Shown here: positions 398 through 41,480 of the stretch, piece by piece
How the letters are laid out: every line of letters begins with the position of its first letter
How positions within the stretch are numbered: the first letter of the stretch is position 1
Virus record (IMG/VR): IMGVR_UViG_2687453364_000004
DNA length: 43,538 nt
Strand: one strand, 5' to 3'
Source of the DNA: a virus
Lineage: Duplodnaviria > Heunggongvirae > Uroviricota > Caudoviricetes
Made by a program: the position numbers and the translations under genes
The notes under the pieces: model-generated
Told to the model about the DNA's origin: nothing
What the model saw: the letters and a program-made list of their open reading frames with translations, nothing else
Database searches by the model: none

Positions 398-676
398 TCA
401 GCTCCATTCCCGAAGCGGTGTTTCCAGCTCCACGACATAATCAGAGAATACAGAAACATCAAACAAGTCATCAAGAATGCGAATGTTGACAAAATAACCG
501 TCATTCCGGACACAGACAGGTTCTCCCTCTTCTGTTACCCCTGTTTCTGTGTAGGTGAAACCAATTTCATCGACTAACAGTTTATTCTGGAGGTCTTCAT
601 CCTCCTCCCAGTCAAGAGATGACAGGAAGGATTTAAACTCTCTGTTACCAGGAAATTTCAAAGTTAAATCTTTCAT
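398..676 (-). CDS. hypothetical acidic protein, translationally coupled to stf (possible tail-fibre chaperone)
   Basis: 92-aa ORF; its ATG overlaps the stf stop (ATGA) and follows an AGGAGG Shine-Dalgarno; acidic composition; no similarity to lambda Tfa recognised. Confidence 0.4.
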   Translation of the reverse strand: MKDLTLKFPGNREFKSFLSSLDWEEDEDLQNKLLVDEIGFTYTETGVTEEGEPVCVRNDGYFVNIRILDDLFDVSVFSDYVVELETPLREWS

Positions 677-2694
677 ACTGCCTCCTTGATTTGCCTGTCA
701 TTTAATTCTTTAAACCAGACTCTGAAATTTCTGATGTGTCCAAACAAATGACGCGTTCCTGCTGCGGTCTGCCCACCAAACCGGTACGATGTTGCTGTAA
801 CTCCAAATATTTTACCATTAAGGTTTGTTGTATAATTACCATTGCATATTGCATTTACTGATAAATCAGATTTAGCTCTCACACCCACAATGAACCTTTC
901 TCCATCTGAGGCAATTTGTGGCTGAACCATTCCTACGTTGGCGCTTATCTTTCCTGTTGCAACAAACCCCAGCGATAAATAATTATCATCAATACTGTGC
1001 CCTCCAACATCAAATATCCTTGGCGCAACATTGGGCGGTGTACTCCAGTTCCTGCTTACTTCGCACAATACCGTAAAAGGCCGTGTTGACAGGTTATTCT
1101 GCGATGGGATAGTAACTACATCACTTGCGCGTGTTGTTGGCATTGTAGTTACAATAAATGACGATGCCGTATTGCCCAGTTCAATTTGCGGCGTCGTCAT
1201 GGTTAATGTTGAGTCATCATAGAATGTCTCATTACTTATTTTATTTGTCATATAAAAAGCACAGTTAACGGTATCAATGTCCGTATTAGCTGTATAAGTG
1301 GCCTCATAGTAGGTCCACTCGCCCTGTTGTTCAGCTTTGGCTGTTATAAGGGATGTATTACCGCTTACTGTTGCGATCCGGGTATCCAGATCAAGATAAG
1401 AGTCAGCAGAGAAGGTATCTGTTCCACCAATAATAACTGAAACTCTTAACCTGCATCGTGCTTTAGCGCCTTTAACCCGGCACGAAAAAGTGAAACATTC
1501 ACCACTTGCCAGCGGGAATCTGTCTGCTGCAACCACACCATGCACAGTATAGCCACCTGTTGTTCCCACTATACTTTCCGTGGGTGTCACCGTGGCATAA
1601 TTGAACCCCTGTTTATCAGTGCCAAATGTTTTATTCAGTGCGGAATGAACAGTCCATGAGTCTGGTTTATTTGAGTTCCTCAGATAATTTGTCCTCTGTC
1701 CTTCAATCAATAAGCCATCGCGCTCAAATCGCGGTTCGTCAACTTCAGCAAGCTTGAGTTGGCCGGACTTATTAATATACGTTGCTGTTGAAGCACGTTT
1801 AAACTTAACAATCTTGTCGCCTGGCATTGTTATTTCATCGTCACCAATAACTATCTTTTTATAAGATGGCGAAAAACCCGTAATCATATCCAGTGAATCG
1901 TTAAACGGTATCCACACATCAGGCAGCGGCGGCACTATATTCGCACAGGGCTCTGCAGTCACTTCCGCTGCGGCTTCTGCGCGGTCTGCCGCCTTTTCAG
2001 CTCGTGTCGCTGCCGACAGAGCCTCATCCTTTTTCTGCCCGGCCTTTGTTGCGTCTGCTGCGGCCTCCCGCGCTTTTGTGGTGGCGACTCCGGCATTTTC
2101 AGCGGCTGACTCTGCATTACGGCGGGAAGCCTCTTCACTGTCTGCGGAGGCTTCTTCTGACGCACGGGCATTTGTCTCTGAACGTTCTGCCGCTGTTGCT
2201 GCGTTTTGTGCGGCTGTTTTTGAAGAAGCTGCCGCTTTCGCGCTGTTACCTGCATTCGTCTCTGATGTTTTCGCCGCGTTCCTGGACGATGCCGCTGCTG
2301 TTTCTGATTTCTTTGCTGCCGCTGCGCTCTGAGAGGCGGCTTCAGCGTTGCGTGCCGCCTCTTCCACCATCTTTTCAAAACGATACAGTGCCTCCGGACA
2401 AACATCATCTTCTGTTGCAGCGCCCAGAAAATCATTCAATGTCCCCGGCTTAGAATCCTCATACACGGTGATGGTCCCGGCATGTGAAGGCGGAAAACCT
2501 TCAACCAGCAGGGCGACGCTGTACTGGCCATACTCAACATCCATGCTGTAACGTCCGGCTTCATCCGGATTTTCTGAGGCCACCGTGTTCACCACAACTG
2601 TGGTGCTGTTACGTTTTGCTTTGAGCTGAATGGTGCAGTTCTGTATCGGTTTTCCTGCACCGTCTTTCAGCACACCTGAAATCTGTACTGCCAT
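673..2694 (-). CDS. stf: side tail fibre protein (Stf-like)
   Basis: N-terminus MAVQISGVLKDGAGKPIQNCTIQLKA... matches the lambda Stf N-terminal domain from memory, followed by an Ala/Ser-rich helical repeat region and a divergent C-terminal domain; the track ORF starts at an upstream GTG (2700), the ATG at 2694 matches the lambda start. Confidence 0.85.
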   Translation of the reverse strand: MAVQISGVLKDGAGKPIQNCTIQLKAKRNSTTVVVNTVASENPDEAGRYSMDVEYGQYSVALLVEGFPPSHAGTITVYEDSKPGTLNDFLGAATEDDVCPEALYRFEKMVEEAARNAEAASQSAAAAKKSETAAASSRNAAKTSETNAGNSAKAAASSKTAAQNAATAAERSETNARASEEASADSEEASRRNAESAAENAGVATTKAREAAADATKAGQKKDEALSAATRAEKAADRAEAAAEVTAEPCANIVPPLPDVWIPFNDSLDMITGFSPSYKKIVIGDDEITMPGDKIVKFKRASTATYINKSGQLKLAEVDEPRFERDGLLIEGQRTNYLRNSNKPDSWTVHSALNKTFGTDKQGFNYATVTPTESIVGTTGGYTVHGVVAADRFPLASGECFTFSCRVKGAKARCRLRVSVIIGGTDTFSADSYLDLDTRIATVSGNTSLITAKAEQQGEWTYYEATYTANTDIDTVNCAFYMTNKISNETFYDDSTLTMTTPQIELGNTASSFIVTTMPTTRASDVVTIPSQNNLSTRPFTVLCEVSRNWSTPPNVAPRIFDVGGHSIDDNYLSLGFVATGKISANVGMVQPQIASDGERFIVGVRAKSDLSVNAICNGNYTTNLNGKIFGVTATSYRFGGQTAAGTRHLFGHIRNFRVWFKELNDRQIKEAV

Positions 2695-2752
2695 ATTCAC
2701 TCCACAAATAAAAAAGGCACCATTTCTGGTGCCCGAATTTGGGTTTTAAAAT

Positions 2753-11168: not shown

Positions 11169-11999
11169 ACCGGACTCCTCCTGCGATCCCTTCTGATACT
11201 GTCATCAGCATTACGTCATCCTCCGTCATGTCCGCCACATCCGGGGAAGCGGGGATAACTTCATTCCCGTCCGGGCCAAAGCGGACACCTCCGGCAAGCC
11301 CTGCCGCTTTCTGCATCAGCACATCATCTTCAGGCTCTTCGTCAGCCTCGCGCCGGTTCAGCAGACTGAAATCCAGCGGATGCATATCCGGATCGCTGAA
11401 AAACAGGCTGAGCACGGTGTACGTCAGCCCGGAAAAGTGCATATCCAGCAGAACATCATGAAAATAATGGGTACTGTAAAAGCGGTGCCAGTCGGCATAC
11501 TCCGTGGATGACATCCCGGCAAGCATGGCACGCCAGTCGGGTCGCCCCATCTCACGCGCCAGTTTCAGGGCAAAACTCAGCTCACCGTCGAACACTTTCC
11601 CGCAGAAACAGGCTCTGCAGGCCCGGCGTCCTCTGCCTGTTCGGGGGCATTATTCACCACAAACTCATACATACCGGACAGCCGGTACACCACGTTTTCA
11701 GCATGAGAAATTGCCTCTGTGGGCCAGGTGGTAAGCACTTCCTGCTCAATCTGTTTAACGGCTTCATTCATGGACGGCATCTGCGTCTTCTTCGGATGGT
11801 TATGCCACAGGGACATCGCCACCAGAAACGCGCCGGTTCTGATGACGTCTTCCACAGTAACCTGCCGGTTGCTGTCGGATCCCGCCGGTTCTGCCTGCCG
11901 TTTCATCAGGGCAAGATGCTCAATACGCTGCAGGGCTGACAGTTCAGAAAGCGTGACGGTCACGCCGTTATATTCAAATGATTCGGTTTTCAGGAACAT
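11161..11999 (-). CDS. T: tail assembly chaperone G-T fusion made by programmed -1 frameshift
   Basis: the ORF 11161-11595 is in the -1 frame relative to G and matches lambda T; the slippery heptamer G GGA AAG sits at the end of G. Confidence 0.85.
11577..11999 (-). CDS. G: tail assembly chaperone G
   Basis: 140 aa, MFLKTESFEYNGVTVTLSELSALQRIEHLALMKRQAE... matches lambda gpG. Confidence 0.95.
   Translation of the reverse strand: MFLKTESFEYNGVTVTLSELSALQRIEHLALMKRQAEPAGSDSNRQVTVEDVIRTGAFLVAMSLWHNHPKKTQMPSMNEAVKQIEQEVLTTWPTEAISHAENVVYRLSGMYEFVVNNAPEQAEDAGPAEPVSAGKCSTVS
11595..11601 (-). promoter_or_regulatory. programmed -1 ribosomal frameshift slippery site (G GGA AAG) for G-T
   Basis: minus-strand GGGAAAG in the G frame just before the G stop, the same heptamer used in lambda G-T. 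Confidence 0.8.
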
Positions 12000-12762: not shown

Positions 12763-13158
12763 TCACATTTCATAGGTAATGACATAAGTCAGATCGGCTG
12801 AACTCCACAGGCCCGCATCATCGTCGCGCCGGTAGTCATAGCCACTGGCCACCATACTGGTGATCAAATCTGACAGTGCCGGGACATCGCTCATCACCGG
12901 ATAAATCCGGGACTCCATCCACGAATCCAGCTCTGAATCCGGCACCTGAGCAGGCAGGAAAACTTCAATATGCAGCTCCGCCTGCCAGGTATCGCTGTCC
13001 AGCTCTTCGCCCGTGTATTCAGCGCCGGTGAGATAAACGGCAACTGCCGGAAAATCCTCCTCATCAAAAACAGCGGGGCGACCATCAAAAAGCGTCGCCC
13101 CGGTGTCATGTTTTTCCAGTGCATCCAGTACGGCTGCACGGAGTTCTGTATGTTTCAT
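12763..13158 (-). CDS. U: tail terminator protein U
   Basis: 131 aa, [36 protein letters not shown]... matches lambda gpU. Confidence 0.95.
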
Positions 13159-13732
13159 CGCTTTATTACCATCCTCAGTTGATGCTGCAGCGCATAGCCC
13201 AGCTCTTTCGGAAGACGTTCACGCCGTATCCGCTCAATATTCTGTTTAAACGCCGTGGTCAGCGGCACTGCCATCGGGATTTTCACCACATCAATGGGGT
13301 AACGGTTTTTCCCGGCCACACGCTGCATGACATGCCATCGGCCATTTTTCAGTTGCTGAATAAACGCGCCGGGAATACGACGGTTTCCCACCACAAGCAC
13401 GCTGTCGCCACCTTTCAGGGATGAACGCTGCCCCTTTTTACGACGCCTGCGTCGGGACAGGACAACCCGCGCGTTACCCAGCCTGATTACGGGCAAATCC
13501 CCCGGTTAACCTTGATTCTGGCCTGCGGATTTTTGACCGTGGCCCTTTTCAGCCTGGCCCTTTCCTTTACCAGTTTCCGGCGTACCTTTGTCTCACGGGC
13601 AACCTGTGACGCCGACTGCGATATCGCGGATGAAGCAACGCGGTTAATGGCCATTGCGGCGGCACCGGGCACCGCCGTTCTGCTGATACGGCTGAGGTTT
13701 TCAACGGCCTGCTCAAGACCTTTTATGGCCAT
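13155..13732 (-). pseudogene. Z: tail completion protein Z, interrupted by a frameshift
   Basis: lambda Z (~192 aa) is split into two overlapping track ORFs (13487-13732 ending ...KVNRGICP*, and 13155-13496 starting at a TTG with PVIRLGNARVV...); the junction lies in a run of five G (minus strand) where, from memory of lambda gpZ (...NRGDLPVIKLG...), there should be six. Confidence 0.7.
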
Positions 13733-13743
13733 ACATCCCCCCT

Positions 13744-14097
13744 TCAGCGACGACGGTTAACGGCAGGCGGCACGCCACGCCCAAGCCAGAGATGACAGCT
13801 TCCGCCATCATCCGTCGAAATCCGGTCTATCCAGAAGTTTTCCTCACCGATGGTCAGCGTGTCGCCGCGCCGCAGCTGCCGCACATCATCAGTCCGGACA
13901 AACAGGGACGGGCTGGAGCCTTCAACGCGCACGCCCTGTCCGGCATAGCTGATATTTTCAGGGTCATCAAAAACACCACGTATTACTGCGCCGGACTGCT
14001 CACCGGATGTCATGGTGGCTGACGTTCCCATGTACCCGCGTATCGTTTCATCGGCGCGGACAATGGCAGCATCGAACAGGTTATCGAAATCAGCCAC
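13744..14097 (-). CDS. FII: head-tail joining protein FII
   Basis: 117 aa, MADFDNLFDAAIVRADETIRGYMGTSATMTSGEQSG... matches lambda gpFII. Confidence 0.95.
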   Translation of the reverse strand: MADFDNLFDAAIVRADETIRGYMGTSATMTSGEQSGAVIRGVFDDPENISYAGQGVRVEGSSPSLFVRTDDVRQLRRGDTLTIGEENFWIDRISTDDGGSCHLWLGRGVPPAVNRRR

Positions 14098-23277: not shown

Positions 23278-23571
23278 ATGAAAAAAATGTTGTTTTCTGC
23301 CGCTCTGGCAATGCTTATTACAGGATGTGCTCAACAGACGTTTACTGTTGGAAACAAACCTACAGCAGTAACACCAAAGGAAACCATCACCCATCATTTC
23401 TTCGTTTCGGGAATTGGGCAGAAGAAAACTGTCGATGCAGCAAAAATTTGTGGTGGTGCAGAAAATGTTGTTAAAACAGAAACCCAGCAAACATTCGTAA
23501 ATGGATTGCTCGGTTTTATTACTTTAGGCATTTATACTCCGCTGGAAGCGCGTGTGTATTGCTCACAATAA
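23278..23571 (+). CDS. bor: Bor outer-membrane lipoprotein (serum-resistance family)
   Basis: MKKMLFSAALAMLITGCAQQTFTVGNKPTAVTPKETITHHFFVSGIGQKKTVDAAKICGG... is near-identical to lambda Bor; opposite strand to the late genes as in lambda. Confidence 0.9.
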   Translation: MKKMLFSAALAMLITGCAQQTFTVGNKPTAVTPKETITHHFFVSGIGQKKTVDAAKICGGAENVVKTETQQTFVNGLLGFITLGIYTPLEARVYCSQ

Positions 23572-39954: not shown

Positions 39955-40043
39955 GTTCGCATTCACCCTCAAGCGTATTAACCAACAGTTCAGGGATTAA
40001 TGAAAGATGGCAGTGAAGTGGTCAACAAAAACTGGCCACCGAG

Positions 40044-41191
<1,148 letters not shown>

Positions 41192-41480
41192 TATGGCACC
41201 TGTGTTGTTCTGAGGTGAGCATATCACCTCTGTTCAGGTGGCCAAATTCAGTAAACCACTTCACAGACATCATTGATTCAGCATCAGAAATAGAAGAATT
41301 ACAGCGCAACACAGCAATAAAAATGCGCCGCCTGAACTACCTGGCTGTATCTGCCACTCATTGTTGTGAGTGTGGCGATCCGATAGATGAACGAAGACGC
41401 CTGGCCGTTCAGGGTTGTCGGACTTGCGCCAGTTGCCAGCAAGATCTGGAGCTTATCCGCAAACAAAGGGGGATTAAGTG

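Follow-up and report, generated by a model that had tools for sequence, protein, structure and literature searches.

Our analysis indicates that the lambda-type tail completion gene Z of this prophage is interrupted, as deposited, by a single-base contraction in which a run of six G has become a run of five. The lesion, the six G of the relatives and the distribution of the five-G form can all be read directly from the sequences, and from these we infer that the base is most likely missing from the assembly rather than from the DNA. Comparison of the deposited genomes points to an artefact, a long-read error that went uncorrected in the assembly of strain uk_P46212, as the very probable source of the missing G. 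The window (by which we mean the whole stretch of 43,538 nucleotides that was analysed) is 100% identical over all its bases to positions 300302-343839 of the Escherichia coli ST131 genome uk_P46212 (CP013658), in reverse orientation, and it holds a lambdoid prophage integrated next to icd, with sitABCD lying just past the far end.

Gene Z and its lesion

The genes of the lambda-type morphogenesis cluster, all on the minus strand, are arranged as E, FI, FII, Z, U, V. Gene Z occupies 13155-13732 (minus strand) and was assigned from Pfam family PF06763, from the PGAP annotation and from the effect of restoring one G. Its neighbours on the same strand, delimited by the ORF listing and the annotation, are intact: the head-tail joining gene FII (13744-14097) upstream and the tail terminator gene U (12763-13158) downstream. 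The start of U overlaps the stop of Z, as it does in lambda. In the window and in the lambda annotation alike, Z sits between FII and U and upstream of the major tail gene V, which is the position expected of a gene for gpZ.

As deposited, the gene is 578 nt long and is divided between two reading frames. The N-terminal ORF (13487-13732, minus strand, 81 aa) carries residues 1-78 of authentic Z, after which come ICP and a stop, so that its last residues read KVNRGICP, and the ORF listing and the sequence both place the premature TAA of the shifted frame at 13487-13489 (minus strand). The remainder, Z residues 80-192, is carried in another frame by a 113-aa ORF that starts from TTG (13155-13496, minus strand) and carries on as PVIRLGNARV. 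The two ORFs overlap, and their junction is the run of five G on the coding strand, which is read directly as CCCCC at 13499-13503 on the plus strand and is the site of the missing base, the relatives having six. Both pieces belong to the same family. Against the PF06763 profile (Minor_tail_Z) they match positions 1-76 and 79-190 of 190, with E-values of 1e-28 and 2e-46 and scores of 100.6 and 158.8 bits (cut-off 23.9). With six G, the protein matches the profile along its whole length (positions 1-190) at 271 bits (E = 6e-81). The preliminary description, which had two overlapping ORFs jointly covering lambda Z and meeting at a run of five G, is thus borne out by the ORFs, by the coverage of the profile and by the letters themselves.

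Restoring the sixth G lengthens the gene to 579 nt and 192 aa, and when one G is inserted in silico the resulting protein is identical to the Z protein of E. coli EC958 (WP_000985120.1). Where a single ORF of about 192 codons would be expected for gpZ, the deposited sequence is split after codon 78, and in the source record CP013658 PGAP accordingly labels Z as 'phage tail protein, frameshifted', that is, as a pseudogene. The gene is a member of the PF06763 family, and this copy as written is either a pseudogene or a miscall. The alignment that had been proposed, to the DNA of lambda Z, settles the length of the run in the relatives: lambda (NC_001416) and EC958 both read CCGGGGGGAT, with six G, and the window reads CC-GGGGGAT. 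The six G that the preliminary description implied for lambda are therefore really there, and a lambda gene with five G at this site, which would have removed any reason to speak of a lesion, is not what the alignment gives.

The rest of the prophage looks healthy. Outside an IS element, a single substitution and the missing G are all that separate the window from EC958, and the genes of the window other than Z are identical to those of EC958. We considered whether the prophage had already been defective before the lesion in Z and found this unsupported, since the other genes equal those of EC958 and the side tail fibre ORF is contiguous. That side-tail-fibre-like gene (673-2700, minus strand) forms one contiguous ORF of 675 codons. 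PGAP splits it into two 'incomplete' pseudogenes with a gap in uk_P46212, EC958 and Ecol_542, and annotates it differently again in Ecol_AZ161; the split seems to reflect the way a mosaic gene was annotated, not a break in the gene.

Several further features of the region may be recorded here. The sitABCD iron/manganese transporter adjoins the tail-fibre end, in the flank that precedes window position 1. The G/T -1 frameshift heptamer GGGAAAG is found at 11595-11601 (minus strand), within the genes for the tail assembly chaperone. The cargo of the prophage (about 23280-23570 and 27690-33040) comprises iss, which encodes a bor-like serum survival lipoprotein, an alpha/beta hydrolase and an inverse autotransporter. 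The 4.3-kb gene of this autotransporter, which lies as cargo between the replication and nin regions, contains near-identical repeats at 30663-31725, offset by 357 bp and 98.6% identical over 706 bp. In the early region an IS3-family element, ISEc52 (40014-41263), interrupts a gene of the TraR/DksA family; this insertion is present in uk_P46212 and missing from EC958 and Ecol_542, and in Ecol_867 an ISEc52 is found elsewhere in the same prophage, near its right end.

Distribution of the five-G form and the probable error signature of uk_P46212

Among complete E. coli records with identical flanks, 569 carry the six-G 66-mer and 4 the five-G 65-mer, a five-G share of 4/573 (0.7%); the count covers identical-flank copies only, a five-G copy with a flanking SNP not being separated from six-G copies. 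Six G are found in EC958, which is also ST131, and in several hundred other copies with the same flanks. The exact five-G 65-mer occurs in none of the 27 matching phage records, and all 40 of the lambda-family phage matches listed span 702 bases against the 701 bases of the query.

The four carriers of five G are instructive. The source strain uk_P46212 belongs to ST131 clade C2 (PMC6949217) and was assembled from PacBio RSII data. Ecol_542, an ST131 fimH30-R strain with CTX-M-27 from Viet Nam (2011), is represented by an HGAP3 assembly of PacBio RSII reads made with P5-C3 chemistry, as are related Ecol_ genomes. CREC-544, an ST457 strain from Korea, was built from PacBio RSII data only with SMRT Analysis 2.3.0. 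The fourth carrier, A22 from a possum, has 11 of the 29 genes around Z marked as frameshifted and is plainly an error-ridden assembly. The first three are separate lineages whose common feature is the sequencing platform. The five-G form occurs in long-read assemblies only and cuts across phylogeny, appearing in ST131 C2, ST131 H30-R, ST457 and the noisy A22. Since these three lineages are unrelated and six G stand in EC958 and hundreds of others, one inherited mutation cannot explain the pattern. Common ancestry of the five-G copies in the two ST131 strains, uk_P46212 and Ecol_542, was considered and rejected, the one being clade C2 and the other fimH30-R with CTX-M-27. A substitution that the two have in common against EC958 is uninformative in this respect, because it is the common allele, found in 352 records.

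A comparison of uk_P46212 with EC958 speaks to the quality of the assembly. Over the 190 kb compared, besides the ISEc52 insertion, the two are set apart only by a pair of single-base indels and one substitution. At the sole substitution it is EC958 that has the rarer allele, and uk_P46212 thus shows no private SNP across the 190 kb. Both indels are contractions of G6 to G5, one in Z and the other intergenic, 17 kb away and outside the window (CP013658 about 347,644, beyond sitA), where, of 765 matching places in complete E. coli genomes, this is the only one with the shortened run. In repair-proficient E. coli, substitutions normally arise several-fold more often than single-base indels. Because of this, two homopolymer contractions with no private SNP are what leftover long-read error would produce and not the usual outcome of spontaneous mutation: like changes recur within one assembly and outnumber its substitutions. 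For the hypothetical protein gene downstream of the second contraction, the PGAP coordinates and accession in uk_P46212 differ from those in EC958 and Ecol_542.

The error rate is nonetheless low. Two further 50-kb stretches of uk_P46212 are identical to EC958, and the first 90 kb of the EC958 sequence alone offer 15 G/C runs of at least six. Ecol_AZ161 and Ecol_867, products of the same pipeline, show zero indels over 36.7 kb of the region. The residual rate of the pipeline thus comes to approximately 3 contractions in about 55 G/C runs of at least six, with 2 of the 3 at Z, which is easier to reconcile with a weakness specific to the site than with an assembly that is noisy throughout.

The wider public collections show the same run in trouble elsewhere. 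In a large public collection, many long-read assemblies with other homopolymer errors nearby give it as five or seven G. Five G also occur in CP121347, in an ENA metagenome scaffold and in the Logan contig SRR14710827, which are otherwise clean and belong to other lambdoid prophages, so real contractions of the run may occur. An 81-aa C-terminal fragment of Z, a gene-caller product of the broken gene, is found in 2,623 blocks of a large assembly collection, from which it follows that Z is often split in public assemblies. Among ten places listed, the lesions include a G6 run upstream of the start codon, the Z run as five or seven G, and A-runs. The places listed in these look-ups of Z fragments are 97.0-98.9% identical to the window, and exact-protein look-ups of the 81-aa N- and C-terminal fragments returned no prophage of the ST131 type among the matches listed.

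Assembly artefact, real deletion or functional split

How could a single G be lost in this way? If the fault lies in the assembly, the true Z would be an ordinary tail-completion gene with a six-G run at codons 77-79 (CGG GGG GAT); writing six G as five would shift the frame after Gly78 and end the ORF three codons on; this homopolymer under-call would then have remained in the PacBio RSII assembly of uk_P46212; and the actual prophage would encode a normal 192-aa Z, with no biology left to explain. The preliminary description had offered an inactivating mutation and a homopolymer sequencing error as the two readings of the split. Both were sensible, and the evidence leans to the error, because the five-G form follows platform and not lineage and because both indels in 190 kb are contractions of G6 to G5. 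The identity of the window with uk_P46212, which extends to the strain-specific ISEc52, also counts towards an error, as does the PacBio origin of that assembly. Against this stands the method cited for P46212 (Sheppard et al. 2016, supplement), in which single-base homopolymer indels were corrected with an Illumina mapping consensus, as well as the paper on Ecol_542, which reports manual inspection of Illumina pile-ups. If the Illumina correction was thorough on chromosomes, the five G would be supported by reads; and as Ecol_AZ161 and Ecol_867 are clean, residual errors from the pipeline are not frequent, and a five-G run that survived it could be read-supported. Illumina reads are public for both strains (P46212, BioProject PRJNA297860; Ecol_542, run SRR3999060).

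These same points are what a real deletion has in its favour. A slip of replication in the G6 run would have removed one G and left a strain-private Z-null allele, a reading that we regard as unlikely. Under it, induction of this prophage would still bring lysis and the release of normal-looking but mostly non-infectious particles, because Z is required to position the DNA end properly where head and tail join; the prophage would be newly defective and the lysogen unaffected. Several further points speak for it: G/C homopolymers are natural sites of slippage, a resident prophage's structural genes escape selection in the lysogen, a few other assemblies have five G as their sole frame-breaking change, the phenotype of Z-null phage is documented (PMC11099176), and a genuine frameshift is known in another lambda tail gene, stf (PMC10721106). 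A real deletion would, however, require independent and identical mutations in ST131 C2, ST131 H30-R and ST457, all of them sequenced on PacBio RSII, with 569 same-flank six-G records standing against these three lineages. It would also require a second private contraction of G6 to G5 17 kb off, in a genome without a private substitution in 190 kb. A bolder version, which we consider highly improbable, would have the run act as a recurrent slippage hot spot through which prophages lose infectious tails and keep lysis and cargo, with a trace of Z still made by slippage of tRNA-Gly. If true, this would be a small step in prophage domestication.

Could the five-G state itself be functional, either through a programmed -1 slip of tRNA-Gly on G GGG or as a phase-variable switch for infectious tails? 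Mechanically the idea would work: with five G, a tRNA that moved back by one base, from one GGG onto the GGG that overlaps it, would give ...NRG DLPV..., which is authentic Z, the -1 frame is open from two codons ahead of the G run, and genes G and T of the same cluster do use a programmed -1 shift at their GGGAAAG heptamer. We nevertheless give it next to no chance. The split state is not conserved: Z is a single ORF with six G in lambda, in all the phage matches listed and in 569 of the 573 same-flank records, where a programmed shift should show a conserved two-frame arrangement. Nor is the site an X XXY YYZ heptamer, as C CGG GGG would need a tRNA-Arg to re-pair on CCG, and in C CGG GGG A only tRNA-Gly could re-pair. 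Folding of the 111 nt that surround the site shows no gain in stability over shuffles (z = -0.11), which gives no indication of a stimulatory structure, and a weak AAGG is all that was found by way of an upstream Shine-Dalgarno-like element. On conservation, heptamer form and RNA fold, a programmed frameshift is rejected here, in agreement with the earlier judgement that it was improbable. For phase variation, both tract lengths should be common and independent of method; the off variants instead make up 0.7% of copies and track the sequencing platform, three being PacBio RSII assemblies and one the error-ridden A22. Known phase-variable tracts are usually longer than six. Reinitiation at the TTG (13494-13496) would be another way to obtain the C-terminal part, and it is unlikely as well, since the sole purine-rich stretch, GGGGGA, ends one base before it, which presumably leaves too little spacing for ribosome binding.

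What follows depends on which of these readings holds. If the base is missing in the assembly only, Z is normal and the pseudogene flag in RefSeq is a casualty of sequencing error. If the deletion is real, we have one ST131 isolate whose prophage releases mostly non-infectious particles, a private and trivial matter, in which the Z-null allele is a recent, private and disabling mutation in an otherwise intact prophage and leaves the lysogen unaffected. For curation, the point is that the G6 run of Z is repeatedly miscalled in long-read assemblies, and therefore a split Z in prophage catalogues should not, without read support, be counted as decay.

Comparison with lambda and other known systems

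The natural reference for this gene is lambda gpZ (UniProt P03731; PF06763). The order FII-Z-U-V and the overlap between the start of U and the stop of Z are the same in lambda and in the window, and the repaired Z of the window, like that of lambda, has 192 aa, with 3 differing residues (K18R, K84R and G109D). The difference that matters is that lambda Z is a single ORF with six G, whereas the Z of the window, as deposited, is split after residue 78. Lambda particles made without Z have normal morphology and are mostly non-infectious, which has been explained by DNA that is wrongly positioned where head and tail join (PMC11099176).

A parallel for a real lesion is the stf gene of laboratory lambda (lambda PaPa), in which a real one-base frameshift splits a tail gene into two ORFs (PMC10721106). 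Like the lesion in Z, it is a one-base split of a lambda tail gene, and it illustrates that such lesions arise and persist. However, stf is dispensable for plaques, whereas Z-defective particles are mostly non-infectious, and a laboratory lineage carries the lesion in stf as a fixed trait, whereas that in Z is sporadic and follows the sequencing platform. Programmed shifting is represented by lambda G/T, which belongs to the same tail cluster and moves in the same -1 direction as would be needed to rescue Z. But the G/T site has a conserved G GGA AAG heptamer and both of its frames are conserved in relatives, and the Z site has neither.

A further class that resembles the lesion is that of the residual homopolymer errors of PacBio RSII assemblies (HGAP/Quiver) and of Nanopore-only assemblies, which, like the lesion in Z, are single-base G/C contractions and turn up in unrelated strains. 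The one respect in which the present case departs from this class is that the cited pipeline claims Illumina correction, which an error in Z must have escaped. The split of Z in uk_P46212 is most likely not biology, and the finding is an ordinary one.
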